Positions 3,740 to 49,040 of a DNA stretch of 64,000 nucleotides are shown here, piece after piece (within the stretch, counting starts at the first letter, position 1; each line of letters opens with the position of its first letter). Under the pieces are notes generated by a model. The model searched no databases and was not told the DNA's origin. It saw only the letters and a program-made list of their open reading frames with translations. Source of the DNA: Minisyncoccia bacterium. Its GTDB lineage: Bacteria > Patescibacteriota > Minisyncoccia > UBA6257 > JAAZHW01. The position numbers and the translations under genes were made by a program. The stretch lies in assembly GCA_041550235.1 (NCBI GenBank), contig JBFEPE010000001.1, positions 8,003 through 72,002 on the forward strand, read 5' to 3'.

Positions 3740-3880
3740 GGCAGATATAATTCCCCTCTAATAGAGGGGTGGCTCGCCACGAAAGAAATTGCTTTGCAAT
3801 TTCAACGTGGCTGAGACGGGGTGTTTTTCTTATTCTTTAGACCCCCGCCTTCGCGGGGGTGACAAGAGGGGGTATTTCGT
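3740..3880. repeat. Cluster of GC-rich hairpin repeats (dispersed family; reverse-complement copy near 21680-21735)
   Basis: ccctctaatagagggg, gtggctcgccacg..cgtggctgagacggggtg and acccccgccttcgcgggggt. The segment 3765-3825 is the near reverse complement of 21683-21737. Confidence 0.7.
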
Positions 3881-3962
3881 AATTCAAGATTATTATTATA
3901 TTATCAACATTTTTCAATTAGGCAATGAGAATTATTTTTGATATAATATTATTCGATTATAT

Positions 3963-4031
3963 GGGTCCGCCAGGTTTGGGTGATCTGTATTACCACACAG
4001 CATCTTGGGGGTTCGATTCCCCTCGGATCCA
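3963..4031 (+). tRNA. tRNA-like gene (7-bp acceptor stem, canonical T-arm; anticodon arm not cleanly resolved by eye)
   Basis: 5' gggtccg pairs with 3' cggatcc (one G-U). T-arm GGGGG-TTCGATT-CCCCT. D-arm aggt/atct is plausible. The anticodon stem has mismatches, so this may be an atypical tRNA or a pseudogene. Confidence 0.4.
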
Positions 4032-14764: not shown

Positions 14765-15345
14765 GAAGACAAGATGGATATTGGCAGGCGAGCGAGGAGC
14801 TTAAAAATTTGATATAAGGGTATAAAATTGTATTTTTAATTTTCTAAATTGTTATGCGGAATAATTTAGAAAAAAGATGAGATATCGATTCCAAGCATCA
14901 CTTTTGTTATTTTTTAGAGGGGCGATTTATTAATTCCCTCCCCCGCCGTAGGCGGGGGAGGGAATGGAGTTAGAAAATAATAAGAGTGATGTTTGGATAA
15001 TAATATTTCTCATCGGGGCAGATAATTAAGGGTGTGTGGTGGATGCCTTGACTTGTAAAGGCGAAGAAGGACGTGGCGTGGCTGCGATAAGCTTCGGGGA
15101 GTTGCTTAGCAAACTTTGATCCGGAGATTTCCGAATGGGGAAACCCATCTCGAATTTAAACTCGAGATATCCCATCTTATCTTAAAGATGGGGAGCTAAC
15201 CCGCTGAAGTGAAACATCTCAGTAAGCGGAGGAAAAGAAAAAAAGATGAATTATTTGTTCCACTTGTTTTAAATATTAGAACAAGTAGAACATCTAATTC
15301 ATTCATTCCCTAAGTAGCGGCGAGCGAAAGGGGAAGAGCCCAAAC

Positions 15346-15448
15346 CCAGCCCCAGTTTTTATCTAGTGACGAAATTTGTATTTGATTAATTTATTAAGAA
15401 AAAGATTATTTATTCAAATAAAAGTGGCTGGTTAAAAACTGGGGCTGG
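15346..15448 (+). mobile_element. 23S intervening sequence copy a (hairpin element with CCAGCCCCAGTTTT / AAAACTGGGGCTGG termini)
   Basis: About 103-nt AT-rich insert bounded by a perfect 14-nt terminal inverted repeat. About 95% identical to copy e at 17801-17901. Confidence 0.7.
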
Positions 15449-15765
15449 GGGTTGTAAGATTATAAAATCTCGTTTAATCGTGGTAGAGAAAAAATTAAGT
15501 TTATTAATAGAATTTGCTGGGAAGCAAAACCAAAGAAGGTGATAGTCCTGTATATGAAAATTTACTTATCTCTATGTTTATTTTCTTGAGTACTTCGGAA
15601 AAGGAAAAATCCGAAGGAATCTAGCTGAACTATCAGCTAAGGCTAAATACTTTACAAGATCGATAGCGAACCAGTACCGTGAGGGAAAGGTGAAAAGCAG
15701 GCCGGTGAGGCCAGTGAAATAGTACCTGAAACCACACATTTACAAGCAATCAGAGTCTGTCATAT

Positions 15766-15945
15766 CTGTTTGTTCTTTTTAAATTTAAAATCTTTTTGAT
15801 CTACTTGCAGAAGGTCTTGAGATGCATTTTAGTTAGCAGGGGGGAGGCATTTTTTGCCTGGTTAAGACCATATTTTCCCTAGACCCAAACGGGATACCCC
15901 CATTGCTTTATTTAATAGTGTCCTTTTTAAAAAAAGGACAAACAG
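15766..15945 (+). other. 23S expansion segment / IVS bounded by ctgtttgttc...ggacaaacag
   Basis: About 180-nt insert relative to consensus 23S domain I/II. Closed by a 10-bp inverted repeat. Confidence 0.5.
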
Positions 15946-16011
15946 ATGTGGCGGATAATGGTGTGCCTATTGAAGAATGAGCCAACGAGTGTATGGATAT
16001 TGCTGATTAAC

Positions 16012-16119
16012 CCAGCCCCAGTTTTATGATAGTTTTCTAAAGTGAATAAAATTTTGATTCGCTTTGGAACGAGCGACATGTGTGTTGCTGATAAAACTTA
16101 TTGGTAAAACTGGGGCTGG
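16012..16119 (+). mobile_element. 23S intervening sequence copy b (same terminal inverted repeats, different interior)
   Basis: cccagccccagtttt...aaaactggggctgggg. Confidence 0.7.
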
Positions 16120-16660
16120 GGAAGTCAAAGGGAAACCAAGTCTTAACAGGCGACAACAATTTTTTCTTTTGGTCTTATTGGCTAAAGGAAAAATTTGTAA
16201 GTAGTATTCATACGACCCGAAGCCAGAGCGAGCTTGCCATGGCCAGGGTGAACCTCATCGAAAGATGAGGGGAGGCCCGAACCGTTAGGTCGTGCAAATC
16301 CTTCGGATGAGCTGTGGTAAGAAGTGAAAAGCTAATCGAGCCTGGTAATAGCTGGTTCTCCTCGAAATAGTTTTAGGACTAGCGTCTATTTTATCCTATT
16401 GCAGGTAGAGCTACTGGTTGAGAAGAATAGGGGGCAACCTCGGCTTCTTAGTCAAACTCCGAATGGTGATAGGTTATGAATAGGCAGTTAGACTGTGGGG
16501 GCTAAGCTCCATGGTCAAAAGGGCATGAACCCAGATCGCCATCTAAGGTCCCTAAATCTAGACTAAGTGTTGCAAAAGGTAGTGATCGACCGAAGACAGG
16601 TAGGATGTTAGCTTAGAGGTAGCTATCATTTAAAGAGTGTGTAACAACCCACTGCCATAT

Positions 16661-16762
16661 CCAGCCCCACTTTTTAACTTGAAATCTAAATTTTTCATTG
16701 GTTTATAATTGCAAAAAGTTTTAAATCGTGATTTATAGATTCTAGCTAAAAAGTGGGGCTGG
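16661..16762 (+). mobile_element. 23S intervening sequence copy c (variant termini CCAGCCCCACTTTTT / AAAAAGTGGGGCTGG)
   Basis: Inserted between gagtgtgtaacaacccactg and ggtcg of the conserved helix. Confidence 0.65.
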
Positions 16763-17377
16763 ATTGGTCGGTTGCATCGAAAATGTATCGGGGCTAAGTC
16801 TAGTACCGAAGTTGCGAATTTCCTCGCTTTTTAGTGGGGGAGTGGTAGAGGAGCATTCCATATGTGATGAAGCTGGACCCGAGAGGGCTGGTGGAGTATA
16901 TGGAAGAGAGAATGTTGGCATGAGTAACCGCAAGCAAGGTGAGAAACCTTGTCGCCGAAAACCCAAGGTTTCCGTGGCAATGTCAATCAGCCACGGGTTA
17001 GGCGGCCCTAAGGCGATGGCGAAAGCCGTAGTCGATGGACAGCTGGTTAATATTCCAGCTCTTCTAAGTAAATTCGATGGAGTGACGGGGGAAATAAGGT
17101 TGAGTGTCTTATTGGTTTGGCATTACTACCCCTAAGAAATGTTTTTTTGGTAAATCCGGAAAACTGCTTTTAATAGCGAATTTCGGGGGATGCAAAATTC
17201 CGCTTCGGCGGGAAATTTGACTGAATAGCCCTCCAAGAAAAGCTTCTAAGATATATTTATTTAGAATCCGTACTCTAAACCGACACAGGTGGGTAGGTAG
17301 AGAATACCAAGGCGAACGGGTGAGTCTTCCTTAAGGAACTCGGCAAAAAAGCGACCGTAAGTTCGCGATAAGGTCTT

Positions 17378-17683
17378 CCAGCCTCAGTTTTGTGTTATAA
17401 TTTATGATATGTGGGTTGTATATATCATACAAAATGATTTTTCAGAAGAAATCTATATCGGCATAACCAAGGATTTAAAAAGAAGAATCTCAACTCATAA
17501 TTCTAATGGCAAAAAATTTACCACTAGGAAAAATGGTAAATGGATTTTGATTTATGCTGAGGCATACAAGTCAAAAAAAGATGCTATTGTAAGAGAGATG
17601 AAATTGAAAAATCATGGAAGTGCAAAGCATAATTTAATTAAACGAATTAAAAATAGTTTAATTGAACACAAAACTGAGGCTGG
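17378..17683 (+). mobile_element. 23S intervening sequence copy d, carrying a GIY-YIG endonuclease ORF (termini CCAGCCTCAGTTTT / AAAACTGAGGCTGG)
   Basis: Same terminal inverted-repeat architecture as copies a-c and e, but 306 nt long with an internal ORF. Confidence 0.7.
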
Positions 17684-17756
17684 ACGCAGCGAAAGTATCC
17701 CTGGCGACTGTTTATCAAAAACACAGGTCCCTGCTAACTCGCAAGAGGATGTATAG
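17409..17756 (+). CDS. GIY-YIG family homing endonuclease-like ORF inside 23S IVS (C-terminal ~25 aa read through into rRNA exon)
   Basis: VYIIQN...YIGITKDLKRRISTHN matches GIY-(10)-YIG with conserved R and H/N. The ORF starts 18 nt inside the IVS. Confidence 0.6.
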   Translation: MWVVYIIQNDFSEEIYIGITKDLKRRISTHNSNGKKFTTRKNGKWILIYAEAYKSKKDAIVREMKLKNHGSAKHNLIKRIKNSLIEHKTEAGRSESIPGDCLSKTQVPANSQEDV

Positions 17757-17800
17757 GGGCTGATGCCTGACCGATGCGGGAAGGTTAAATCTGGCGGTCC

Positions 17801-17901
17801 CCAGCCCCAGTTTTTATCTAGTGACGAAAATTTGAATTTAATTAATTTATTAAAAAAGATTATTTATTCAAATAAAAGTGGCTGGTTAAAAACTGGGGCT
17901 G
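17801..17901 (+). mobile_element. 23S intervening sequence copy e (near-identical to copy a)
   Basis: ccagccccagtttttatctagtgacgaaaatttgaattta...aaaactggggctgg. Confidence 0.7.
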
Positions 17902-18379
17902 GGGGCTAACTGGATGAAGCCCCCGTCAATGTCGGCCGTAACTATAACGGTCCAAAGGTAGCGAAATTCCTTGTCGGGTAAATTCCGACGTGCATGAACG
18001 GCTTAACGACTGGGGAACTGTCTCAAGGAAGAGCCCGGTGAAAATGCAATTTCAGCGAAGATGCTGAGTACCCGCAGCAAGACGAAAAGACCCCGGGAGC
18101 TTTACTGTAGCTTGGTATTGGGCTTGAGAATGTAATGCGTAGCATAGGTGGGAGACTTTGAAGTTTCAATTTCGGTTGAGATGGAGTCGCCAGTGAAATA
18201 CCACTCTTTATATTTTTAAGTTCTAACCTTGATGGAAAAAACATTAGGGGACAGTGCCTGGTGGGCAGTTTTTCTGGGGCGGAATCCTCCCAAAGAGTAA
18301 CGGAGGAGTTTATTAAGGTCAGCTAGGTGCGGATGGAAATCGCACTGATAGTGTAAAGGCAAAAGCTGGCTTAACTGCG

Positions 18380-18480
18380 AGGCCTACAAGCCGAGCTCTA
18401 TTTCGTGTTTCGCATAAGAACTTTCAAGAAAATAATAATTCTACCCCCGCCCATACGGGCGGGGGTAGAATAGGCAAATT
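18380..18480 (+). repeat. 23S expansion containing a GC-hairpin repeat (ctacccccgcccatacgggcgggggtag)
   Basis: About 100-nt insert relative to consensus. It carries the same hairpin family seen in intergenic regions. Confidence 0.5.
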
Positions 18481-18596
18481 TAACTCTGGAATTTCTTGTG
18501 CGGAGCATGAGATAGACTTTCTAGATAATTATATTTAGATCGAGATACGAAAGTAGAACTTAGTGACCCGATGGTTCTCTGTAGAAAGGCCATCGA

Positions 18597-18628
<32 letters not shown>

Positions 18629-18766
18629 TTAGTTGCGCCCAAGAGTCCATATCGACGGCGCAGTTCGACACCTCGATGTCGGCTCATCTTATCCTGGAGG
18701 CGGAGAAGCTTCCAAGGGTTTGGCTGTTCGCCAATTAAAAAGATACGCGAGCTGGGTTCAGACCGT

Positions 18767-19122
18767 TGAGTAGTCAAGATAATTTTTGGTTTTTAGGGTG
18801 GATAGTGTGTTTCTTTCTCTTAAATTAATTAAAATTATTATTAAATTGACTTTTCAGCAGTCTGAATCCGAGGAATAAGACATCAATTTACGGCGGCATT
18901 TCGTAGTAATACGGAATGAAAAACCGACTCATATCGGTGGAATCCCAATGGGACAATACCGAGGGAAGTTGTGTATGTTAATATCATGGTGGTCATTTCG
19001 TCAAATAAAAGATAATGTTAAATGACATGCATTAACCCCGTAGAGACTATATGTCGGTCTCCTCTTTTGACAAAGAGGACGAAGATATAGTCCAATGCAC
19101 TTAGTAATAAGTGGGAAACATG
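18767..19122 (+). mobile_element. Group I intron in 23S rRNA (ORF-less, ~356 nt)
   Basis: Exon junction gaccgt|cgtaagacaggttgg reconstitutes conserved GAACGUCGUGAGACAGUUCGG. Intron follows a U and ends in G. R-like gtagagacta (19040-19049) and S-like aagatatagtcc (19082-19093). Confidence 0.6.
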
Positions 19123-19263
19123 CGTAAGACAGGTTGGTCTCTATCTGCTGTGGGCGTTGATACTTGAGGGAATTTGACCCTAGTACGAGAGGACCGGGTT
19201 GAACGAACCTCTGGTCTATCAGCTTTCCTACCAGGGGAATTGCTGAGTAGCTAAGTTCGGTTG

Positions 19264-19296
<33 letters not shown>

Positions 19297-19480
19297 CATC
19301 CCAAGATTAGGTATCCATTTCAATTTATTGGAAGTCATCCCCTCAGAGACGATGAGGTTGATAGGCTTTAGGTGTAAGGTCAGTAATGATTTTAGCCAAG
19401 AAGTACTAATCGGATGAGTTCTGCCTCGATGAGAGATATTATTTATTATTAATATCAATTTTTACCCTTATATTTTTAAG

Positions 19481-27112: not shown

Positions 27113-27425
27113 GCCAATGTAGCTCCCGCCGAAGGCGGGCGAAGCAGTTGGTGGAGGTTGGAACATTACGAAGTTGTGTTTCAACCCGTGGTAAGGAGTA
27201 CATTTATTTATATTTTGCCAATGTAGCTCCCGCCGAAGGTGGGCGAAGCAGTTGGTGGAGGTTGGAACATTACGAAGTTGTGTTTCAGCCCATGGTAAGG
27301 AGTATATTTATTTTTATTTTGCCAATGTAGCTCCCTCCGTCGCCAAGGCTATGGAGGGGCATGCAGTTGGTGGAGGTTGGAACATTACGAAGTTGTGTTT
27401 CAACCCATGGTAAGGATTAGATATA
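27113..27425 (+). repeat. Three tandem ~104-bp repeats, each a scrambled tRNA-Thr-like fragment with an embedded GC hairpin
   Basis: Each unit starts gccaatgtagctc (the tRNA-Thr 5' end), carries cccgccgaaggcgggcga and ends c(c/a)tggtaagga(g/t)ta (anticodon loop + 3' stem). Units start at about 27113, 27217 and 27321. Confidence 0.75.
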
Positions 27426-27456: not shown

Positions 27457-27494
27457 GCCAATGTAGCTCAGCTGGTAGAGCAACTCCATGGTAA
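27457..27494 (+). pseudogene. 5' half of a split tRNA-Thr(GGT) gene (acceptor through anticodon loop)
   Basis: gccaatg-ta-gctcagctggtagagc-a-actcc-atggtaa. The 3' partner lies at 45551-45592. Confidence 0.75.
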
Positions 27495-27650
27495 TTTCTC
27501 TCCCGTGATAAGTAGAGTGAAATTAGTTAGAATACAAGAGAAAGTTAATGGATAAGGGGGTTTTAGCGGGGAGGCATCTGGCAAAAATGGGTCGTGGTCG
27601 GTAGATGTAAAAATTATCATTAAACAGCAAAAGGTTATTATATCTCTTTT

Positions 27651-27723
27651 GCCGTTGTAGCTCAGTTGGTAGAGCAACGCCGTGGTAAGGCGTAGGTCAG
27701 CGGTTCAAGTCCGCTCAACGGCT
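27651..27723 (+). tRNA. tRNA-Thr (anticodon GGT), island-borne copy
   Basis: gccgttg/caacggc acceptor. D-arm gctc-agttggta-gagc. Anticodon arm acgcc-gtGGTaa-ggcgt. T-arm agcgg-ttcaagt-ccgct. Discriminator T. Confidence 0.85.
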
Positions 27724-27748
27724 CCTTAAAAAGCATTACAGATTAGTA

Positions 27749-28660
27749 ATGTTTTTTATTATTATGGATATACAAATTTTAGTTCGTAAGTTTTGTGATT
27801 ATTCAACTTTTATTAAAGGATATACTCCGCAAACAATTAAGAGATATAGGCAGACAATTCGTTCCTATATCAAATTCGCTAATATCACTGAAATAGAGGA
27901 AGTGAATTTAGAGAATGTTCGTAATCTTTTTTATTCTGGCCGAACCCAAAGGAATTGGTCAACCAATACCTATATCTGCTACCATAAATCTTTAATTGTT
28001 TTCTTTCGTTGGTGTGTAAGTGAAGGCCACCTTCAATCCAATCCAGCCGAAGAGATTGAAGTGCCGAAACTGGAAAAGAAAATTCCGCCTAAATTAACCA
28101 AGCAAGAAACGATGAGGATATTGGAAGTAGTAGAAAATTATCCTTATATCAATGATTTTTTAAGGCAAAGAAATTATGCTATCTTTGCCACAATCATAAT
28201 GGCAGGATTGAGAAAAAATGAGATTATCAATTTAAGGTGTGTTGATATAGATATTGAAAATCTCTCTATTTTTATTCGGCAGGGGAAAGGAAGTAAGGAT
28301 CGGATTGTGCCAATCAATTACAAATTAGCTGAAATTTTAAGCAAATACGAAAAAGAAAGAAAAAGATTGAAAAAAACTTGCCCCGAATACTTTGTTTCTC
28401 TCTATAAAAATATGGGGATTAGGCATAATGGCTTAAAGTTATTGGTAGAACAAATATCAAAAGCATCGGCGATTAAATTCACTCTTCACAAATTAAGGCA
28501 TACCTTTGCCACAATGATGTTGGAGGGAGGATGTGATATTTATTCTCTCTCTAAAATGATGGGCCATAATGATATAAAAACAACCACAATTTATTTGGCC
28601 GCCAGCATAGAGCATTTAAGAGAACAGATGATTAAACACCCAATGGGAGATGTTTTGTAG
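27749..28660 (+). CDS. Tyrosine site-specific recombinase/integrase (XerC/D-like)
   Basis: C-terminal catalytic box HKLRHTFATMMLEGGCDIYSLSKMMGHNDIKTTTIYL (R..H-R..Y). 303 aa. Adjacent to the tRNA. Confidence 0.9.
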   Translation: MFFIIMDIQILVRKFCDYSTFIKGYTPQTIKRYRQTIRSYIKFANITEIEEVNLENVRNLFYSGRTQRNWSTNTYICYHKSLIVFFRWCVSEGHLQSNPAEEIEVPKLEKKIPPKLTKQETMRILEVVENYPYINDFLRQRNYAIFATIIMAGLRKNEIINLRCVDIDIENLSIFIRQGKGSKDRIVPINYKLAEILSKYEKERKRLKKTCPEYFVSLYKNMGIRHNGLKLLVEQISKASAIKFTLHKLRHTFATMMLEGGCDIYSLSKMMGHNDIKTTTIYLAASIEHLREQMIKHPMGDVL

Positions 28661-29400: not shown

Positions 29401-29592
29401 AAATCAATAATTTAATATGCCTAACCCCTATGATTATTCATAGGGTATGGCGATAAATCCATCCCTGTATTGAGCTCCTCGTTCAGCTTATCAGGGATGG
29501 TCATATTCGGAAACGGATATGGATGATCGCAAGATCGTCAGGTTGGCGGGGAGCTTTGTGTTCCAAGTCAACCACTAAAACCATCCCTAAAT
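29401..29592 (+). ncRNA. Candidate structured cis-regulatory RNA in the 5' leader of the 29593 membrane-protein gene
   Basis: Locally GC-richer. Hairpins ccctatga-ttat-tcataggg; ccatccctg...cagggatgg; tattcg-GAAA-cggata; gatc-GCAA-gatc; ggttg...caacc. A second ccatccc copy abuts the start codon. Confidence 0.4.
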
Positions 29593-34681: not shown

Positions 34682-36124
34682 ATGCTAAAAAATTTTACAA
34701 CACAATTTAGAGATTTAGGCAAAGAAACATCAATTAGATTTGATTTCAGTTTTATTGATTTTCAAAATACTTTTTTAGTTAAAGATTATTATTCTTTTAG
34801 TGATTTATTTGAAATTAAGGAGAACAACAGAAAGGATATTTCTGAAATAAAGGATGATTTTTACTATTCAGAAATAGGAAATGTTAATAAATTGGGAGAG
34901 GTTGATCCAGTAAAATTAAATTTTGATGAAAAGTCTGAAGAATATTTAGATTATTTTAAGAAAATAGAGAGGGGAGATATTATTGAGGTCGGGGAAGGGG
35001 AAATTCTAATATCAAAAGTTCGTCCTAATCTAAAGAAATATGTTTTTATTGATGATAAAAATAAAGAATATTTTTATACTTCTGCTTTTATTCACTTAAA
35101 ACCAAAAAAATTAAATAAAGTTTTATATTATTCATTAAGAAGTTTATTTTTTGATAATTTAATAGCTATTTCAAGACAGGGCAAAGGTTATCCTACTTTG
35201 AAAAATGAAGATTTATATTACTTAAAATTCAATAAAGAAATGATTGATAAATTAGAAAGTAAAGAAAAAGATATAAATAGCAAAATAATCCCCAATGAAA
35301 ATAAAATTAAGGAATTGAAAGACAAAATAGAAAAACCGCAGGATATAATCAATGAAGTTTTTGCTAATGAATTTAGTTTTGATTTAAAAAAATTTGAGGA
35401 ATTAAAGAAAGAAAATATTTTTTCTGTTAATTTTAGTGATTTTTCTAATTACCACAGCCTAAGATTTGATTTTAAAAACAAGAAATTTTTTCCAATTTTT
35501 GAAGATATTATTTCAAAACTTGATACAATTAGACTAAAAAATATTGTTTTAGAAGATCCGCTTTATGGAGCAAATGAGCCTGCTATTGATGGTGTTGTTG
35601 GTAATGATATAAGATATGTAAGAATAACTGATATAGATGATTTGGGGGAATTAACAAATAACGAATGGAAAACCGCCGAAAATATAGACGAAGTTTATTT
35701 ATTAAAAGATTTAGATTTTCTTTTTGCGAGAAGTGGTAATACGGTCGGTAAAAGTTTTTTATATAATTCAAATAAACACGAAAAATCTATTTTTGCTGGA
35801 TATTTTATAAAATTTAAAATTGATTTTAAAAATTTAAATCAATTATTTTTCCTTTATTATTCAAAATCTTTTATTTTTGAATTATGGAAAAATGGAATTG
35901 TAAGAGTAAAGGGGCAACCAAATATAAATGCTAACGAATATTTAGAACTTCAAATTCCTAATATCCCATTATCTAAACAAAAAGAAATAGTTAAAAAAAT
36001 AAAATCTCGATTAGATAGACAAGAAGAAATCAAAAAAGAAATAGAAAAAGAGAGGGATAAGATAGATAAAATAATTGAAAATGCTATAATACAAACACTT
36101 GAGGGCTATAAGCCCCTGCTCTAA
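34682..36124 (+). CDS. Type I/IIB restriction-modification specificity (HsdS-like) subunit with two target-recognition domains
   Basis: Two TRD signatures (ISRQGKGYPTLKNEDLYYLKF; ARSGNTVGKSFLYN). C-terminal coiled-coil spacer KQKEIVKKIKSRLDRQEEIKKEIEKERDKIDKII. 480 aa. Confidence 0.7.
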   Translation: MLKNFTTQFRDLGKETSIRFDFSFIDFQNTFLVKDYYSFSDLFEIKENNRKDISEIKDDFYYSEIGNVNKLGEVDPVKLNFDEKSEEYLDYFKKIERGDIIEVGEGEILISKVRPNLKKYVFIDDKNKEYFYTSAFIHLKPKKLNKVLYYSLRSLFFDNLIAISRQGKGYPTLKNEDLYYLKFNKEMIDKLESKEKDINSKIIPNENKIKELKDKIEKPQDIINEVFANEFSFDLKKFEELKKENIFSVNFSDFSNYHSLRFDFKNKKFFPIFEDIISKLDTIRLKNIVLEDPLYGANEPAIDGVVGNDIRYVRITDIDDLGELTNNEWKTAENIDEVYLLKDLDFLFARSGNTVGKSFLYNSNKHEKSIFAGYFIKFKIDFKNLNQLFFLYYSKSFIFELWKNGIVRVKGQPNINANEYLELQIPNIPLSKQKEIVKKIKSRLDRQEEIKKEIEKERDKIDKIIENAIIQTLEGYKPLL

Positions 36125-39321: not shown

Positions 39322-41454
39322 ATGGAAATATCACAATTATTATCAGCAATAAACAAAAAAGAAATAGTCGTTCCTGAGTTCCAAAGAGAATATGTTTGGA
39401 GATTAGAACAAGCAAAAGAATTGATGACTTCTCTGTTTAAGGATTATCCAACAGGAAGTATTTTAGTTTGGCCAACAAATAAACCGCCAAAGATAAAAAA
39501 CAATGCTGTTGATATTAAAGATATTGGGACGGTTAGGGTTTTATTAGATGGCCAACAGAGATTAACCACTTTATATCTCTTAATTAAAGGACAAATTCCG
39601 CCATATTACAGAGAAGACGACATAACGAATGATCCAAGACATTTATATTTCAATTTAGAAACAGGAGATTTCAACTACTATCAAAAACAAAAAATGGAAG
39701 GGAACTCTTTTTGGAAAAGAGTTGTTGATTGTTTCAATGATGATTTTGATATTTTTTCTTTGGAAAATGATATAAAAGAAAAAGGTGGAGATTTTTCTGA
39801 ATTAGGGAGAAAAATAAACAATAACATTGGAAAATTAAAAAGTATTTTAAGAGAAGATTATCATATTCAACAAGTTCCCGATGGGGTAGAAATTGATGAA
39901 GCTATTGATATTTTTGATAGAGTTAATTCAAAAGGAACAAAACTTACTGATGCCGAGCTTGTTTTAACTCATATCGCTGGAAAATGGCCGGAAGTTAGAG
40001 AGAAGATGAAAGAAAGCATAAGAGAATATAGAAAAACTGGTTTTGATTTTAGTTTAGATTTTCTAACAAGATGTATGACAATAATTATTACCAAATCAGC
40101 CCTCTTTGAAAAAATGAATGATGAGATTTATAAGAATACAAGAGAAGAAGATTATAAAGAAAAATGGAAAAATCTAACCAAGATATTTAATTATTTGCTT
40201 CCAATCTTAAAAGAAAATGGTTATATAAACGGAAGTGGAGATTTAAGCACTAATAATGTTTTAGTTCCAATAGTTGCCTATATTTCTCAAAATTCTTTTT
40301 CTTTTCCAAATACTCCAATTAGAAACTATTTCTTATACTGGATGTTTTTGGCTTCTGTTTGGGGCCGATATAGTAGCCGAACCGACCAAAGTTTAGACAG
40401 AGATGTTTATCTTGCTATAAACAGCCAAAATCCGATAGATGACTTACTTAAAGAAATAGAAGACCAAAGGGGAAGATTAGAGGTAAAACAAGCAGATTTA
40501 GAAGGGAGAGGATCGGCACACCCGCTCTATAAAATGCTTGGAATTTTGGCTCGGTATAATAAGGCGATTGACTGGAAGAATGGCGGATCTCTCAATGAAA
40601 CATTAGGAGAAGAATATGCTATTCATAGTCATCATATTTTTCCACAAGGTCTTTTATATAAAAATGGATATACTTCCGATAATCATTTAGATAAAAAAAT
40701 TGTTAATGAGATAGCAAATAGGGCTTTTATAACAAGAGATGCCAACCTTGATATTTCAGACAAGAAACCGCTTGATTATCTAAGAGAAATAAAGAAAAAA
40801 TATCCCGAAGCTCTAAAACAGCAATTTATACCTGAATTTGAAAATTTATGGGATATAGGCAAATTTAGAGATTTTTTGGCCGAAAGAAGAATTTTAATAG
40901 CTCAATCTATAAATGATTTTCTTGATAATCTAAAAGCTGAAGGTGAAAAGATAGAGATTGATAGAGTTGATTATGAAAAGATTATAGAAAGAGGAGAAGA
41001 CAATTACATAGAGTTCAAATCTTCTTTAAGGTGGGATATGAATAGAAATACAACTAACTCAGATTTAAAAAAAGAAATAGCCAAAGCAATGTCAGCCTTT
41101 ATGAATACGGAAGGAGGCAGATTATTTATTGGAGTTAATGATGAGGGTGAAATTTTAGGATTAGATAATGATTATAAGACATTAGGAACACGACAAAATA
41201 AAGACGGATTTCTTCAAAAAATGGATCAGGTAGTTGAAAATTACTTAGGAAGGGAATTTTTTGAGTATATTAGCATTAAGATAATAAAAATAGATGATAA
41301 GGATGTCTGTTTAGTTGAATTAACTAATAGCGGAAAACCTGTCTATCTGAAATTAAAAGACAAAGAGGAGTTTTATATTAGGGGATCAGCCTCTTCTCGT
41401 CCATTAAGTTTGAGTGAAGCCAATGAATATATTAAAAATCATTCTTGGGAATAA
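39322..41454 (+). CDS. GmrSD-like Type IV restriction-type protein: DUF262 (ParB-like NTPase/nuclease) + DUF1524 (His-Me/HNH) + C-terminal Schlafen/AlbA_2 domain
   Basis: N-terminal VVPEFQREYVW (DUF262). Central EYAIHSHHIFPQGLL...NRAFITRDANLDISDK (DUF1524). C-terminal IEFKSSLRWD...AFMNTEGGRLFIGVNDEGEILGL (AlbA_2). Confidence 0.75.
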   Translation: MEISQLLSAINKKEIVVPEFQREYVWRLEQAKELMTSLFKDYPTGSILVWPTNKPPKIKNNAVDIKDIGTVRVLLDGQQRLTTLYLLIKGQIPPYYREDDITNDPRHLYFNLETGDFNYYQKQKMEGNSFWKRVVDCFNDDFDIFSLENDIKEKGGDFSELGRKINNNIGKLKSILREDYHIQQVPDGVEIDEAIDIFDRVNSKGTKLTDAELVLTHIAGKWPEVREKMKESIREYRKTGFDFSLDFLTRCMTIIITKSALFEKMNDEIYKNTREEDYKEKWKNLTKIFNYLLPILKENGYINGSGDLSTNNVLVPIVAYISQNSFSFPNTPIRNYFLYWMFLASVWGRYSSRTDQSLDRDVYLAINSQNPIDDLLKEIEDQRGRLEVKQADLEGRGSAHPLYKMLGILARYNKAIDWKNGGSLNETLGEEYAIHSHHIFPQGLLYKNGYTSDNHLDKKIVNEIANRAFITRDANLDISDKKPLDYLREIKKKYPEALKQQFIPEFENLWDIGKFRDFLAERRILIAQSINDFLDNLKAEGEKIEIDRVDYEKIIERGEDNYIEFKSSLRWDMNRNTTNSDLKKEIAKAMSAFMNTEGGRLFIGVNDEGEILGLDNDYKTLGTRQNKDGFLQKMDQVVENYLGREFFEYISIKIIKIDDKDVCLVELTNSGKPVYLKLKDKEEFYIRGSASSRPLSLSEANEYIKNHSWE

Positions 41455-42815: not shown

Positions 42816-42936
42816 AATTTTTATTTAATTAACGACCTTTGTAAAAATCCGAAAACTGAATTACTTCCGATTTTTATAAATCCTTGAATTAGATTTGCTT
42901 TTATTATATCAGAATTAGTGTTAAAGTTAAACCAAT

Positions 42937-43131
42937 ATGCTAACAGATAAAGAAATAGATGATTTTATTGAGTTATACAAGAAAAAATTTGGAAAAGAAA
43001 TTGGCAGAGAAGAGGCGATTAGAAAAGGGGCAAAATTAGTTCGGCTTGTAGAAGCTATTTTGAAACCTAAAGATAGTAATCCTAAAAAAGCGGAACATAT
43101 TATTGATGAAAGCCACAAAAAACCTATTTAA
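42937..43131 (+). CDS. Small hypothetical protein (64 aa), possible DNA-binding
   Basis: Helical, basic. Located upstream of the iteron-like repeats. Confidence 0.3.
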   Translation: MLTDKEIDDFIELYKKKFGKEIGREEAIRKGAKLVRLVEAILKPKDSNPKKAEHIIDESHKKPI

Positions 43132-43169
43132 TAAATGGGTTTTTGTTTATTTTTTATGATAAAAGTAAT

Positions 43170-43465
43170 AAAAAAATGCTGGCTACTACTGGCTACGCGA
43201 GGGGGTAATGACAAAAAATACTTAAATTTTTAAGTGATTGGGAAAACTTAATATCAAAACCTAAAAAAGCAAGTAAATAAAAGGTTTTTTCTATTTTTTA
43301 GGTCAAAATAATTATCAAAAAAATGATGGCTACTAATGGCTACAAGAAGGGATTATAAAATAAAAAATCTTGGAAAATCTTGGAAATTTGAGGGGGTATG
43401 ACAACATAGGTAGTGCTGTTTTTTTGTTTGCCCTATTGATTTTTTAGGGTAAAATAAGGTTATAA
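43170..43465. repeat. Two ~140-bp tandem units each with paired TGGCTAC iteron-like direct repeats spaced 10 bp
   Basis: tggctactactggctac (43180-43196) and tggctactaatggctac (43326-43342). Further shared blocks gggggta(a)tgacaa and tttt(t)agg(g)t(c/a)aaataa. Confidence 0.65.
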
Positions 43466-43480
43466 TTTTGTTAACAAAAA

Positions 43481-44308
43481 ATGAAAGATAATAAAGAAAA
43501 CAAAAAATCCTATTTAACTCAAGGAGATAAGAAATTATTGATATCTTTTAGAAGATTTTTGAAAAGAGAGCCAGTTTTATTAAAAATTCAAGATTTAAGA
43601 AAGAAATATGATATACCAAAAAATGGATTAAAAAAGAATGAAGTTTTTAAGCCAAATGAAGATGGATATCAAATCTATGTGGGAGATTTTGATTTTCCAA
43701 TCAGGATTGATTTTAATTCCGCCCTTAGAAAAGATATTAAAGAATATCTTCTTGAAGAATTTCCTGTAAAATCTAATTTTATTATACATCTAACGAAGAT
43801 GTTTATTTTGTATAACAACATTGATGATTATATAGATTTTGATAAATCCAAAGAAGAAGTTGATTTAGAATTATTTAACATATTTGATTTAGTTGATGAT
43901 ATGGAGATAGGTTATGATGTTATGAATGATCGTGATGCTGGGACTGGTCAAATTCACGGCTTTATTGAAGAAATAATGAATAGAGGAATGGAATATCCAA
44001 TTTCAATAGGAATACCAAACGGAGCCACTAAAAGGGATTTATTAGAATATATAAAGAAAAATTGGAATAAAATTGAAAAATTAAGAAATTCCAAAAAAGA
44101 AAATAAAAAATGGTTAGCCGTAAGAAAAAGTAATCCCGAGATTGAGAGAAGAGATGATTTTATTTATAAGCATAGAAAAAAATCATTAAAAGAAATAAAG
44201 GATTTAGTTATAGAAAAATTTGAAGGAAGTTTAGATGGCGATAGAAGGATTTTATATACTTGGCAAATTAAAAATATAATTGATAGAGAAAAGAAAAAAA
44301 GGAGCTAA
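43481..44308 (+). CDS. Hypothetical protein (275 aa) upstream of second integrase
   Basis: No family recognised. Lys-rich termini. Confidence 0.45.
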   Translation: MKDNKENKKSYLTQGDKKLLISFRRFLKREPVLLKIQDLRKKYDIPKNGLKKNEVFKPNEDGYQIYVGDFDFPIRIDFNSALRKDIKEYLLEEFPVKSNFIIHLTKMFILYNNIDDYIDFDKSKEEVDLELFNIFDLVDDMEIGYDVMNDRDAGTGQIHGFIEEIMNRGMEYPISIGIPNGATKRDLLEYIKKNWNKIEKLRNSKKENKKWLAVRKSNPEIERRDDFIYKHRKKSLKEIKDLVIEKFEGSLDGDRRILYTWQIKNIIDREKKKRS

Positions 44309-44417: not shown

Positions 44418-45344
44418 ATGAAAGATCTATTTGAACAATTTATAAAACAGCAAGAATATGTTGAAAGGAAAAGAAAAAAGACGATAGAAAATTATCGGCA
44501 GAATTTTAATTTATTGTTTGGCTTTAAGCCTGATTTGAAATTGGAAGATTTAACCGAAGAAACAATGATTGATTTCTTTGAGTATCTTGATACAAGGGAA
44601 AGAAGGGTCGGAAAGAAAATGATTGTTAGAAAAATTAAAAATTCCAGTATCGCCACAATAAGAGGAAAATTAGAGGTATTTTTTAGGTGGTTAGTTGATA
44701 GGGAGCATATCAAATCTAATCCATTTGAAAAAATACCATACCCGGAAGTTTCCTACACAAGCAAAGAGGCTTTCACGAAAGAGGAATTTGATAAAATTTT
44801 TATAAACATCGTTAGAGATATTAAATGGGTCAATGATTTTTTGCGAAAAAGAAACACAGCAATGATAATGACTTTAGTATTAACTGGGATAAGAAGAGAA
44901 GAGTTATTAGAATTAAAGCTGTCTGATATTGATTGGAAGAATAAAAAAATAACAATTAGAGATGAAACTTCTAAATCTAAAAGAACAAGAACTATTCCTA
45001 TGTCGCCAGATTTGAGGCCATTTTTAGAGGATTATTTAATAACCAGAACTAATAAGAAAAATAGTTTTCTTTGGGTCAATGGCAGAGATGAAAAATTTAC
45101 TGAACACGGCTGGAAGCATCTTGTTAAAAAACTAAAAGAAGAAACAGAAACTAATTTCCGCACCCATAGATTTAGACATACATTTGCTTGTAATTATTAT
45201 CGGCAGAGAAAAGATCCGGTTGGATTACAAAAAATGATGGGACATCAAGATATTAAAACTACTTTTAAGGTATATTTGCGATCCATAGATGATGATGATT
45301 TAACAAAAGAAATGAATAAATTTAAGATTTCTAAGTTTTATTAA
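44418..45344 (+). CDS. Tyrosine site-specific recombinase/integrase (second copy, divergent from 27749)
   Basis: HRFRHTFACNYYRQRKDPVGLQKMMGHQDIKTTFKVYL. N-terminal SAM-like core-binding domain. 308 aa. Confidence 0.9.
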   Translation: MKDLFEQFIKQQEYVERKRKKTIENYRQNFNLLFGFKPDLKLEDLTEETMIDFFEYLDTRERRVGKKMIVRKIKNSSIATIRGKLEVFFRWLVDREHIKSNPFEKIPYPEVSYTSKEAFTKEEFDKIFINIVRDIKWVNDFLRKRNTAMIMTLVLTGIRREELLELKLSDIDWKNKKITIRDETSKSKRTRTIPMSPDLRPFLEDYLITRTNKKNSFLWVNGRDEKFTEHGWKHLVKKLKEETETNFRTHRFRHTFACNYYRQRKDPVGLQKMMGHQDIKTTFKVYLRSIDDDDLTKEMNKFKISKFY

Positions 45345-45550
45345 AAATGGTCTTGCTAAAGTAAAATGTATCCGCTATTATTGAAGCATCTTAACAATTA
45401 AACAGCTTTTCTTTTTTGCTTTTTAGGGTCTTTTTTCCAAATGAGCGAAATTGGTAAATGGGTCGTGCTAAAAACCAAGTGTTTTGAGTGAAAATCCCCA
45501 TTTTATCAGGTTTTATCGGCATTTTTAGAGAAAAAGGGTGGAGCTGTTTA

Positions 45551-45592
45551 ATGGTAAGGAGTAGGTCAGCGGTTCAAGTCCGCTCATTGGCT
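45551..45592 (+). pseudogene. 3' half of the split tRNA-Thr(GGT) gene
   Basis: atggtaa-ggagt-aggtc-agcgg-ttcaagt-ccgct-cattggc-t. Complements the 5' half at 27457-27494 (gccaatg/cattggc, actcc/ggagt). Confidence 0.75.
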
Positions 45593-45599
45593 CTTTTAG

Positions 45600-45625
45600 A
45601 GAGATTGATTAAATCTCTTTTTTTG
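45600..45625 (+). terminator. Hairpin terminator after the tRNA 3' half
   Basis: agagattgattaaatctct + ttttttg. Confidence 0.45.
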
Positions 45626-45636
45626 TTTTTCTTTTA

Positions 45637-45716
45637 AAAATATGTTAAAATATATACATATTTAGAGGGCAAAAGCCCCTGCTCTGAATCTTTGGGGTAG
45701 GGGTTTTAATATAAAT
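45637..45716 (+). repeat. Copy 1 of a ~50-bp direct repeat plus hairpin cassette (second copy at 48282-48371; partial third at 36101-36152)
   Basis: aaaaatatgttaaaatatatacatatttagagggcaaaagcccctgctct...ggggtaggggtttt...atATG. Confidence 0.75.
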
Positions 45717-46928
45717 ATGAACAAAGATATATCTAAAATTTTTATACCAAAACTTACATATAATGAGTTATCTTTTGTTAAAGGGAAGGGGGTTCCAGCA
45801 ATAATAATGGATGCTTATTTAGTTGCTTATAGAAAAAAAGTTGCTGATAAAATCAGACAGGAAACAAGTTTGTTTATCATTGATCCTAATACCAATTATT
45901 TTGTTGATGATTATTGTAAGAAAAAACCTAGTTTTAAAAGTTTATCAACTACCCCAAAGAAACCATATAAAATAGATGAATTATTGACCGATGAAGGAGT
46001 TAGAAAATACGAAATGGTTTTAAATAATATTAGAAATCAGATAAATAACAATGCTGGATTAATAATATTGCCTTATTTATATATGGACAGCATAGATGAT
46101 GTTAAATTTAATTTAAATTTAACGATGATTAGTGATGGTTTGAGAGTTATAAAAGATAATAAAATAAAATACCCGACATATGCAATGATTAATATAGGTA
46201 ATAATATTTTTAATGATTATTCTAAAATAGATTTCTTAATAGGAAGATATTTTGTTGATTTCAAAAATGAATTAGACGGATATTTTGTAATGATAAACAA
46301 TTTTGATTGTCGCAGAGCTAGTAAAGAGGAGTTATTGGGATTAGCATATTTAACTTTTCGTTTATCAGGAAAAAAGGATCTTTATTTTTTGAAGATGGGA
46401 GATTATGGAGAAATTCTTTGTAGTATAGGTGCTACTGGTTATAGTAGTAGTTTGGCTGGAGGCGAAACTTTTAATGCAGACAATTTATCTAAGAAAAAAA
46501 TAGGAAAGATTTTTGGTAGGAATCATAAGGAAATAACTTATGTAGCTGAATTATTTATTTATCTAAATGATGAGATTTTAAAGAAGATAAAGTATTCTTG
46601 CGATTGTGAAGTTTGTAAAGGCAATATCCCAAGCAGCTGGAATGATACGAGGATGCATTTTCTCAATAGAAAATTAATGGCGATAGAGGAATTAAATAAG
46701 ATAGAAGATGGTGAAAAAATTAAATTTATGATTTCTAAAATAAATAATTCTATTGAACAAGTCGCTGAATATAATTCAAAATTTGCCCCCTTGTCAATTA
46801 AAGCAGATTTTCTTTTGAAATGGAAGCAAGTTTTAAAAGAAGTAATAAATTGGAAAGACGATGACTCAAAGAAAGTTGATACGATTGATTTAGATAAAAT
46901 TATAGAGGAGGCACGAAAATCTCAATGA
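45717..46928 (+). CDS. Hypothetical protein (403 aa) with tRNA-guanine-transglycosylase-like motifs
   Basis: VMINNFDCRR (cf. TGT catalytic xMFDCV) and SCDCEVCKG (CxCxxC zinc subdomain) followed by H 15 aa later. Otherwise unrecognised. Confidence 0.45.
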   Translation: MNKDISKIFIPKLTYNELSFVKGKGVPAIIMDAYLVAYRKKVADKIRQETSLFIIDPNTNYFVDDYCKKKPSFKSLSTTPKKPYKIDELLTDEGVRKYEMVLNNIRNQINNNAGLIILPYLYMDSIDDVKFNLNLTMISDGLRVIKDNKIKYPTYAMINIGNNIFNDYSKIDFLIGRYFVDFKNELDGYFVMINNFDCRRASKEELLGLAYLTFRLSGKKDLYFLKMGDYGEILCSIGATGYSSSLAGGETFNADNLSKKKIGKIFGRNHKEITYVAELFIYLNDEILKKIKYSCDCEVCKGNIPSSWNDTRMHFLNRKLMAIEELNKIEDGEKIKFMISKINNSIEQVAEYNSKFAPLSIKADFLLKWKQVLKEVINWKDDDSKKVDTIDLDKIIEEARKSQ

Positions 46929-47371
46929 ATATAGTCCCCGATACTAATTTGTTATTAAAGGGATTATTGTTTAGGGGTGATGCTAGACAAATAATCAATT
47001 TAGCTTATTCAAAAAAAATAAACCTTTATGGGAGTAAGGGCTCTTTTGAGGAGATAAAGAGAGTCGTTTATTATAAAAATTTTAAAAAATATCTTGAAAA
47101 AGAAATTTATACGCCAGAGAAATTAATTGTTTCTTATAGATCATTAATTAATATAGCTACAATAAACAAAAATTATAAAGATTTGAAAGTTGTAAAAGAT
47201 GATCCAGACGATGATGAATTCTTAAAAATAGCAAAGACAATAGAATCGCAGATCATAATATCTAGCGATAAGCATTTAAGAAGAATCGAAAAATATGATG
47301 ATATCAGAATAATAGAGCCAGAGATTTTTATTAAAATTTACCCTAAAATATTAGGCAGAAAATTCATTTAA
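46925..47371 (+). CDS. PIN-domain nuclease
   Basis: MNIVPDTNLLL (first acidic residue), DDPDDDEFL, ISSDKHL. Start overlaps the upstream gene (ATGA). Confidence 0.7.
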   Translation: MNIVPDTNLLLKGLLFRGDARQIINLAYSKKINLYGSKGSFEEIKRVVYYKNFKKYLEKEIYTPEKLIVSYRSLINIATINKNYKDLKVVKDDPDDDEFLKIAKTIESQIIISSDKHLRRIEKYDDIRIIEPEIFIKIYPKILGRKFI

Positions 47372-48022
47372 TATTTTTTTGTTTAATATTGATTCAGCCG
47401 CTAAATTAAATTTATATTTGTTTAGTGCTTTTTTTGGTTTAAGATTTGTGATCTCAAGTCCTTTATTTTCAAGATTTAATATTATTAATCCAATTTCATG
47501 TTTTTCTAACAATTTCTTATCTATAAGGTGTTCCTGAGATGATGGCATAGCTAAATATACTTTATTAGCAAATGATTTATATCTATTGGCTTGAAGTATG
47601 CCTCTTTTCCAGTTTTTTAGTTTAGCTTCTATAGCAATTATCTCCTTAGCAATGGGCATCCACCCATTTATTTTATAATAATATTGATCGTCAATTATTT
47701 TAATGAAATTATCATCTTGTAGTTTTTTTAAATATTTATACTTCAGTGTATTTCTTGATATTTTTAATCTATTGATAATAAATTCTATATCCACCTTTTT
47801 TCTTTTTCCCATTTCTGGCAAAAGATCAAATATTCTAAAATAATCTTCATTTTCGATTGATTTATATTGTTTATGATTCTTTCTTATTAAACAATTATTA
47901 GAGTCGAGCTTAAATAACACTAAATCAGCTATACCATAACCAACCCCAACTTCCCTTTTGGTTAGATAGCCATTTTTAGACAACTCTTTTTCTAGCAAGG
48001 AGACAAAATATTTTTCTGTCAT
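47351..48022 (-). CDS. PD-(D/E)XK nuclease-family protein (Mrr/Hjc-like core)
   Basis: GYGIADLVLF...IAIEAKLKNWKRGILQANRY shows a D / E-x-K / Q-x-x-R-Y arrangement. 223 aa. Confidence 0.5.
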   Translation of the reverse strand: MTEKYFVSLLEKELSKNGYLTKREVGVGYGIADLVLFKLDSNNCLIRKNHKQYKSIENEDYFRIFDLLPEMGKRKKVDIEFIINRLKISRNTLKYKYLKKLQDDNFIKIIDDQYYYKINGWMPIAKEIIAIEAKLKNWKRGILQANRYKSFANKVYLAMPSSQEHLIDKKLLEKHEIGLIILNLENKGLEITNLKPKKALNKYKFNLAAESILNKKILNEFSA

Positions 48023-48281
48023 ATTAATATTATACTATAATAATAGATTTAATGACATACTTACTCTTAAATAGTGAAAGACGGCGAGCAATCTTGTCGC
48101 TTTGTTGATTTAATAATACCATAATTAAAGATAATATAAAGTCTAAAATTCCAGAAGTAATTATTTAGAGAATTAAGCATTCAAAAATTTAGTATTTTTA
48201 ATATTATATAGATTGCTTTTTATTGTCAGATTTTTTATTTATCAAATTTGCCATAATAATACAGGCAAATTTATTTTATTT

Positions 48282-48371
48282 AAAAATATGTTAAAATATA
48301 TAAATATTTAGAGGGCAAAAGCCCCTGCTCTATTTGTGTCGAGATGGGGCTTTTATTATTAAATTAAAAAT
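48282..48371 (+). repeat. Copy 2 of the direct repeat plus hairpin cassette
   Basis: aaaaatatgttaaaatatataaatatttagagggcaaaagcccctgctct; perfect stem aaaagcccc/ggggctttt, then attattaaattaaaaatATG. Confidence 0.75.
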
Positions 48372-48677
48372 ATGAATTATTATAATTTAGAAAACAGAAA
48401 AATATTGGGTGGCATTCTTGTTGTTATCTCATTAGTAATCTTTTTCTCAATTATTGGTGGAAATAATAATATAGCATCCAATCAAATTAAAAATGACAAT
48501 CAATTTAGAAGTGAATTAAAAAATTGTTTAGAAAAGGTAGATGAAATATACAATACAGCAAAATTAATGAGATCGTCAATTTATGAGCAATACAATTTTT
48601 CTAAGAAAGAGAAGGATGAATATGTAAGGATAATGGAAGAATCAAGGCAAAAAGATGTGGGGCAATGTTATGAATAA
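48372..48677 (+). CDS. Small membrane-anchored hypothetical protein (101 aa)
   Basis: N-terminal TM ILGGILVVISLVIFFSIIGG. Confidence 0.4.
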   Translation: MNYYNLENRKILGGILVVISLVIFFSIIGGNNNIASNQIKNDNQFRSELKNCLEKVDEIYNTAKLMRSSIYEQYNFSKKEKDEYVRIMEESRQKDVGQCYE

Positions 48678-48701
48678 TATGAATTATTATATCAAAACAA
48701 T

Positions 48702-48932
48702 TTGGGGGCAGTAATAATCTTGACTTTAATCATACCCTTATATATACTTTGGTATATGAATACAAATACTAAAAATAAAACCATTCTAAATATAAAAACG
48801 GATAAGGGGTTAAAAGGGCCATCAAAAATGCTAAAAGAGATTATTAAAAAAGCCAATGAAGATTATAAAAAGGGGGATGTTTTTGGTCCTTTTGATAATG
48901 TCAAAGATCTTGTTAAAAGTTTAGAATCGTAA
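48702..48932 (+). CDS. Small membrane hypothetical protein (76 aa)
   Basis: N-terminal TM. No family recognised. Confidence 0.3.
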   Translation: MGAVIILTLIIPLYILWYMNTNTKNKTILNIKTDKGLKGPSKMLKEIIKKANEDYKKGDVFGPFDNVKDLVKSLES

Positions 48933-49040
48933 TTTTATGAGTTTTTTGAATAAAATTTTGTTTTAAGTGGCTTGATTTATGGGATATATAATATAATATA
49001 AGAACACTCATAGTGTTATGAGGTTTGTTATAATTAGAAA

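Follow-up and report, generated by a model that had tools for sequence, protein, structure and literature searches.

Phased TGGCTAC repeat pairs, candidate operator-type sites, in the integration module of an island from an uncultured Minisyncoccia bacterium

The stretch of DNA analysed here (64,000 nucleotides of contig JBFEPE010000001.1 from Minisyncoccia bacterium, assembly GCA_041550235.1; in the following: the window) contains an island of 18,063 bp that is inserted in the anticodon loop of tRNA-Thr(GGT), and two pairs of the short direct repeat TGGCTAC lie at the right end of this island. The right-end module consists, in this order, of an orphan open reading frame (ORF) of 64 amino acids (aa) (42937-43131, plus strand), a spacer of 349 bp that bears the repeats, a 275-aa ORF (43481-44308, plus strand), the tyrosine recombinase gene int2 (44418-45344, plus strand) and the attachment site (att); no other non-coding stretch of the module is as long as this spacer. 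The original prediction, made from the sequence letters alone, had placed the repeats between a small putative DNA-binding gene and the second integrase: they do follow the 64-aa gene, but the next gene is the 275-aa ORF and the integrase comes only after it. Nor did the 64-aa protein bear out its description as DNA-binding: a word-index search returned only the protein itself, there was no match in Pfam, PHROG or NCBIfam, and the single-sequence structure model, a helical hairpin with a disordered basic tail, had no fold match and no detectable DNA-binding fold.

Direct reading of positions 43170-43465 identified TGGCTAC on the plus strand with starts at 43180, 43190, 43327 and 43337, confirming the predicted pairs with a spacing of 10 bp. 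The true repeat length is 8 nucleotides in both units: pair A (CTGGCTAC-TA-CTGGCTAC, 43179-43196) has its 8-mers at 43179/43189 and its heptamers at 43180-43186 and 43190-43196, and pair B (ATGGCTAC-TA-ATGGCTAC, 43326-43343) has its 8-mers at 43326/43336 and its heptamers at 43327-43333 and 43337-43343, so that the position first given for the second pair (43326/43336) is exact for the 8-mer only, while that of the first pair (43180/43190) is correct. Each cluster thus has two direct half-sites at a phasing of exactly 10 bp from start to start, and the distance from pair A to pair B is 147 bp, or 14.0 turns at 10.5 bp per turn. TGGCTAC occurs nine times in the window, with 2.4 occurrences expected, and none of 100 shuffles reached nine. 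No other 7-mer of the window that is repeated 8-12 bp apart recurs as TGGCTAC does at 10 bp; Markov shuffles had on average 0.12 recurring 7-mer pairs at this spacing and never more than one. The TGGCTAC pairs are real, non-random, locally conserved and phased repeats in a unique island.

The pairs belong to two units, and these were compared without gaps in the register set by the start-to-start distance of 147 bp. Identity is 24/32 for positions 43117-43148, 12/21 for 43149-43169, 25/27 (93%) for 43170-43196 versus 43317-43343, 16/30 (53%) for 43197-43226 and 10/36 (28%), which is the random level, for 43227-43262. The duplicated unit of about 140 bp that had been proposed therefore exists as a 147-bp register around a conserved block of 27 nucleotides, but the similarity is patchy and the rest is at random level. 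On the plus strand, this block reads AAAAAAATG-C-TGGCTAC-TA-C-TGGCTAC in unit A (43170-43196) and has the form AAAAAAATG-N-TGGCTAC-TA-N-TGGCTAC in unit B (43317-43343); the T-rich stretch upstream of it is 57-75% identical between the units. Within the first 30 nucleotides, all six differences between the units fall outside the 14 heptamer positions (P = 0.006-0.014), and three short blocks are retained between the units while the spacers between them vary in length. The two shared flanks described in the original prediction are both present, but one of them, GGGGGTA(A)TGACAA (GAGGGGGTA(A)TGACAA), is out of register, as its copies at 43202 and 43392 are 190 bp apart rather than 147 bp. They are part of the GAGGGGGTAATGACAA box of unit A (43199-43214, plus strand), 3 nucleotides past pair A, and of the GAGGGGGTATGACAA box of unit B (43390-43404, plus strand), 47 nucleotides past pair B. 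The other flank is a T-rich box, TTTTTTAGG(G)T(C/A)AAAATAA, with copies at 43293 and 43439 and a weaker one at 43149, all on the plus strand and 27-42 bp upstream of ATGs: the weak copy ATTTTTTATGATAAAAGTAA (43149-43168) is 27 bp upstream of the unit A ATG, ATTTTTTAGGTCAAAATAA (43293-43311) is upstream of unit B, and ATTTTTTAGGGTAAAATAA (43439-43457) is upstream of the 275-aa ORF and overlaps the only promoter-like match that a consensus scan identified on the plus strand of the spacer (TTGCCC-16-TAAAAT, 43428-43455). A third 10-bp tandem repeat, AAAATCTTGG in 2.3 copies that are 100% identical, lies at 43364-43386 (plus strand).

Several other kinds of element were considered for the spacer and discarded. 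A minus-strand promoter with TAGCCA as -35 element is present in unit A only, with no equivalent in unit B by sequence inspection. A structured RNA element was rejected, as folding of the two units gave no excess structure (z = -0.07 and -0.12) and no Rfam family reached its gathering score even in a search at permissive threshold (best E = 0.044). No third att copy and no boundary of a nested element was found near the repeats.

The 275-aa protein appeared to be an orphan in a word-index search (self only) and in a single-protein genome scan (nothing found), but an exhaustive HMMER search identified about 296 cluster representatives of 240-290 aa that align end to end. The family has no model in Pfam, PHROG, NCBIfam or PADLOC, only a small helix-turn-helix (HTH)-like domain is recognisable, and an AlphaFold model from the family alignment has a pLDDT of 80. 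At 29 family loci, the gene heads recombinase, HTH_17 and methylase cassettes in Patescibacteria, composed either of a gene for a protein of about 376 aa, an HTH_17 protein and DNA methylases or of a large serine recombinase. All 26 genome loci of relatives are from metagenome-assembled genomes (MAGs) of uncultured bacteria, mostly labelled as Patescibacteria lineages; the exceptions are three with the label Gammaproteobacteria and two with just 'uncultured bacterium'. The family was not found in IMG/VR viral contigs. One Logan contig (L001, carried by run SRR29257546) is the same sequence as the window. We conclude that this is a Patescibacteria-wide mobile-element family; the 275-aa protein, which has a plausible DNA-binding domain, is the best local candidate for a protein that binds the spacer. 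The window copy is like its family in aligning end to end and in adjoining a recombinase, as many relatives do. It differs from them in that its recombinase is of the tyrosine type, whereas one or the other of the cassettes described above follows the gene in the relatives, in the long repeat-bearing spacer and in the absence of a (GTAAA)3 leader, which about half of the relatives have.

This leader is a 17-nucleotide motif, TGTAAA(G/C)TAAAGTAAAG, that directly precedes the family gene's ATG at roughly half of the 29 loci. It lies 2-6 nucleotides from the start in 13 loci (L002, L022-L026, L028, L029, L031 and L034-L037), is partial in L006, L027 and L032 and is often preceded by CTTGAATTATATT; the proteins are just 25-35% identical. 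The possibility that the T-rich box of the spacer corresponds to this leader was rejected: the best window site in a position weight matrix scan ranks 38th of 128,000, and units A and B have no match. The protein of about 376 aa (MIDT..FPRLT..IEFSxPKLL..NNL) is conserved downstream of the family gene, usually directly adjacent, at 16 loci, namely the 13 with the canonical leader plus L005, L006 and L032. The 13 canonical loci together with the partial ones L006 and L032 thus form a subtype with this gene; L027 lacks it, and L005 has it with no motif detected, its start being uncertain. No Pfam match above threshold was obtained for the 376-aa family, and one of six members weakly matches Rep_trans (E = 0.0013), so the protein may be a distant rolling-circle initiator; the gene was not found in the window. 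A BFVD search gave nothing, and no account of these elements turned up in the literature search. A few family loci have helically phased short repeats of their own upstream of the family gene, with sequences unrelated to TGGCTAC: the 10-bp AAAATNNCAC in 6-7 copies (L016, ~2119-2185), 9-bp GTTAC(T) repeats, three plus three inverted (L021, ~3904-3983), and two copies of TCAATMCTAC (L023, ~3880-3900).

Our best guess, tentative and limited to the anatomy of the sites, is that the TGGCTAC pairs are operator-type protein-binding sites in the spacer of the integration module. It is suggested by the non-random recurrence and the helical phasing of the pairs, the non-uniform conservation, the lack of RNA structure and of a clear coding signal, the place before the integration operon in the longest spacer of the module, and the family context, in which relatives of the 275-aa protein head cassettes and a few of their loci have phased repeats upstream as well. 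Two direct half-sites one helical turn apart would fit two head-to-tail subunits on one face of the DNA, and at a distance of about 14 turns the two sites would point to the same side of the DNA, so that a bridge between them could form. Both directly follow a T-rich box and an A-rich context like that of gene starts and precede the 275-aa/int2 operon, a position from which an occupied site would gate transcription that enters this operon from the side of the 64-aa gene. From this layout we infer binding by a protein, the identity of that protein and the regulatory outcome. The candidate binder would be the 275-aa protein with its small HTH-like domain, but that the pairs are the operator of this very protein is rather unlikely, and so is a more exotic variant in which the 10-bp repeats act as slippage-prone switches, a change in repeat copy number re-framing micro-ORFs and thereby toggling expression of the integration module.

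A number of observations weigh against operators. There are just two half-sites per cluster and no further TGGCTAC copy elsewhere in the island. An acceptable sigma-70-like match is found only at the third T-rich box, and the count of promoter-like matches in the region is not above shuffle expectation. In most relatives, the spacer in front of the 275-aa family gene is short and lacks repeats of this kind, and the 64-aa, 275-aa and int2 proteins are all singleton clusters, with no island relative in which conservation could be followed. Directly 5' of the heptamers, both copies of unit A have a C and both copies of unit B an A, which points to mutational homogenisation by slippage or conversion rather than selection, and the perfect AAAATCTTGG repeat, only 20 bp downstream of pair B, indicates that 10-bp duplications arise in this spacer with no obvious function.

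The last points are equally what would be seen if the pairs were functionless scars of duplication, and this explanation, although somewhat unlikely, comes close to that of an operator. A gene-start module (A-rich leader, ATG and about 20 nucleotides) would have been copied once by partial segmental duplication or gene conversion, the 10-bp repeats would have arisen by replication slippage, as the concerted flanking bases and the perfect AAAATCTTGG repeat indicate, and the spacer would consist of decaying small genes related to the 64-aa ORF. High identity is limited to the 27-nucleotide block, as expected from a recent short conversion tract; the 3' end of the 64-aa gene with its terminator-like region resembles the end of unit A (score 39 versus a shuffle maximum of 32, 0/500) and has the 11-mer CCTAAAAAAGC in common with it; unit B, in its middle, matches 25 nucleotides of the 64-aa gene, and the offset is collinear (1/500); and no relative carries the motif. 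However, the exact 10-bp phasing and the identity of 14 of 14 heptamer bases in both copies are unlikely under uniform decay (P about 0.01), and Patescibacteria genomes are compact, so that a dead spacer of 349 bp would presumably be unusual. A profile hidden Markov model (HMM) of the 275-aa family, built without the window protein, scored at or below zero on the three plus-strand frames of the spacer, and tblastn of the 64-aa protein gave only SNPKKA/SKPKKA (E = 0.19); with the 275-aa protein also at E 0.19 or worse, a pseudogene origin of the units was rejected. The likeness of MMATNGYKK in unit B to the N-terminal TQGxKK motif of the family is unsupported because of these negative HMM and tblastn results. 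MMATNGYKK is the start of one of two putative mini-ORFs on the plus strand that invite an alternative in which both units are translated, as leader or regulatory peptides or micro-proteins with their own promoters and possibly leaderless mRNAs, the heptamers being within the coding or initiation region: mini-ORF A (MLATTGYARG*, 10 codons, 43176-43208) and mini-ORF B (MMATNGYKKGL*, 11 codons, 43323-43358) have the pattern M-x-A-T-x-G-Y in common. The genes of this genome have A-rich start contexts and no Shine-Dalgarno (SD) sequences, and both mini-ORF ATGs lie in the AAAAAAATG context that is also used by rpoB, rnpA, yidC and the 275-aa gene; a T-run and T-rich box precede each unit, as at the real 275-aa gene, and removal of one 10-mer per unit yields ORFs that share M[LM]ATR with two synonymous changes. 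Coding cannot explain why a 7-mer is repeated at 10 bp, however, because the two copies fall in two different frames. The three frames have synonymous versus non-synonymous codon changes of 2/10, 3/9 and 1/11, and none of them stands out with an excess of synonymous change, and purifying selection or homologues were not detected: the viral and metagenome scans gave no related sequence and no homologous peptide context, the eight metagenome matches of ATGNTGGCTACTANTGGCTAC being unrelated coding regions. The public pipeline calls no gene in the spacer. Translated mini-ORFs are thus improbable.

The original prediction itself had named, beside operator sites, replication-origin iterons or partition sites and had suggested that the island may replicate or be regulated as an episome after excision; iterons or partition sites are very unlikely. 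Helically phased direct repeats in an AT-rich non-coding stretch would be in line with it, and the weak Rep_trans match of one 376-aa neighbour of the relatives may link the family to replication modules elsewhere, but this neighbour gene is absent from the window and the family from the viral contigs. HMM scans with Pfam, NCBIfam, PHROGs and PADLOC of the ORFs of at least about 54 aa in the 18-kb island identified neither a Rep or primase nor a helicase loader, ParA or ParB, so that the search for a Rep or primase that had been suggested as a check came back empty, and there was no match to ParM, ParR or ribbon-helix-helix (RHH) proteins either. Iteron origins have 3-7 direct repeats of 17-22 bp, usually about 22 bp apart; here, each cluster has two repeats of 7-8 bp at 10 bp and the clusters are 147 bp apart. 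Matches to DnaA boxes are at chance level (22 versus 20.9 expected), the nearest is at 40638 and none is within 2.5 kb. For an AT-rich unwinding element, AT content is uninformative because the whole island is AT-rich. A partition centromere of the parC/parS types Ib and II has an array of many phased repeats, with ParA or ParM and an adaptor protein; here there are only two plus two repeats and no Par or RHH protein was found. The original prediction had named absence of the repeat from homologous elements as a refutation, and the outcome goes against the prediction: ATGNTGGCTACTANTGGCTAC has no match in viral contigs and eight in metagenome contigs, every one inside an unrelated coding region, blastn of the spacer against phages and plasmids gave only short AT-rich chance matches, and the motif was not found upstream of the 29 loci encoding 275-aa relatives. 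The absence from these loci weighs little, however, because the relatives are just ~25-35% identical. Episomal replication of the island is unsupported by its sequence. Hardly conceivable is, finally, that the pairs are arm-type or accessory recombination sites for int2 or a directionality factor at attP. Direct repeats one turn apart near an integrase recall the P' arm and Xis sites of lambda, but the crossover core (45551-45557) is 2.2 kb from the repeats, far outside the ~150 bp expected of such sites, and int2 (308 aa, XerC/D/A-like) has no arm-binding N-domain, as its SAM-like core-binding domain starts at residue 3. The attP region also has repeats of its own that are unrelated to TGGCTAC and are candidate accessory sites: AAATGGGTCGTG at 45456-45467 and 27585-27596, placed symmetrically in the reconstructed circular junction, ~95 bp to the left and right of the core, and three copies of TTAAACAGC (45397, 27619, 45543), of which the one at 45543 is inverted and directly beside the core.

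The boundaries of the island are given by the split tRNA gene. The halves of the tRNA-Thr at 27457-27494 (5') and 45558-45593 (3') have complementary acceptor and anticodon stems and, when rejoined, are a perfect tRNA-Thr by ARAGORN. The junction core ATGGTAA (plus strand) is found at 27488-27494, at the end of the 5' half, and again at 45551-45557, followed by the displaced 3' half; the reconstructed circular junction reads ...GCTGTTTA-ATGGTAA-TTTCTCTCC.... The tRNA is not rebuilt at the junction, but the island brings a complete replacement tRNA-Thr(GGT) (27651-27725) with compensatory differences in the acceptor and anticodon stems. Two tyrosine recombinases are encoded in the island (27749-28660 and 44418-45344), together with a cargo of defence genes: a type I-like methylase, a KAP NTPase, a GajB-like helicase, a PD-T7-5-like protein and a GmrSD/HEC-05 protein. 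A 480-aa ORF with no Pfam match (34682-36124) adjoins the methylase and is, by position only, where a specificity subunit would be expected.

Some further features of the region were observed. The 64-aa ORF and a DUF2188 gene on the minus strand diverge from a region of 121 bp, and a 16-bp inverted repeat in it (42838-42853 / 42865-42880, 88% complementary, 11-nucleotide gap) is a candidate for an operator or a hairpin. At 27113-27416, shortly before the split tRNA, there are three tandem units of ~104-115 bp, each of which opens with its first 13 nucleotides (GCCAATGTAGCTC) and includes the att-core region CC(A/G)TGGTAAGGAGTA; in appearance they are an array of att-like sites derived from the tRNA, and there was no tRNA or Rfam call within these coordinates. 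A LOOT RNA (Rfam RF03000, 86.6 bits) is located at 29418-29539, between the 219-aa ORF that follows int1 and a 323-aa ORF that is hydrophobic by inspection and encodes a putative membrane protein. Directly beyond the displaced tRNA half, the region 45595-49000 is low in GC as well (24-31%). Besides genes for orphan proteins, it has a 403-aa ORF, the end of which is overlapped by the start of the gene for a PIN-domain protein; an older island or a pair of the toxin-antitoxin kind may be present here. The 23S rRNA match (15016-19428) spans 4,413 bp for a model of 2,925 positions, indicating insertions of ~1.5 kb, which is typical of rRNA introns of the candidate phyla radiation (CPR). With these insertions, the LOOT RNA, the SD-less A-rich starts and the MAG labels of the relatives, the genome is Patescibacteria-like.

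Duplication scars would be an ordinary finding. If the pairs are operators, they would offer a handle on the regulation of integrative defence islands of Patescibacteria, which are uncultured and, to our knowledge, have almost no characterised regulators. If they are the operator of the 275-aa protein, this would be the first function for an unannotated family of ~296 cluster representatives, and the first pair of a cis-site and its regulator for a Patescibacteria-specific family whose genes stand at the head of recombinase and defence cassettes across many CPR lineages.

Comparison with established systems sets the pairs apart from some and brings them closer to others. The iteron origins of theta plasmids (pSC101, R6K, P1, F, RK2) also consist of direct repeats within AT-rich, non-coding parts of a mobile element, but repeat length, number and spacing all differ here, and no Rep gene or DnaA boxes were found. 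The centromeres and operators of RHH proteins (omega of pSM19035, ParR/parC of R1, ParG) share with the island direct repeats of heptamer size; they serve both as promoter operators and as partition sites and consist of 4-10 or more repeats, contiguous or spaced by 11 bp. Their partners are an RHH protein and a ParA or ParM ATPase, and neither kind of protein was found here. The pho box and the decamers of OmpR and TorR have two 7-bp direct half-sites about one turn apart, as here. The pho box consists of two 7-bp direct repeats with an 11-bp period, and response-regulator boxes are bound head-to-tail by winged-helix dimers; the period in the island is 10 bp, not 11 bp, and no response regulator or winged-helix protein of the OmpR type was found in it. 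The Cox boxes of P2, the Apl sites of 186 and X1-X2 of lambda Xis resemble the pairs in being short direct repeats with ~10-10.5-bp phasing in the regulatory region of an integration module, but in the island there are two repeats per cluster, far from the att core, in a module with no detectable Cox, Apl, Xis or HTH_17 protein. What speaks against membership in these families of direct-repeat operators is the lack of a matching protein, as none was found in the island; by analogy, the anatomy of the sites resembles the direct-repeat operators bound by Cox, Apl, Xis and the response regulators, and we take this resemblance as a set of leads.
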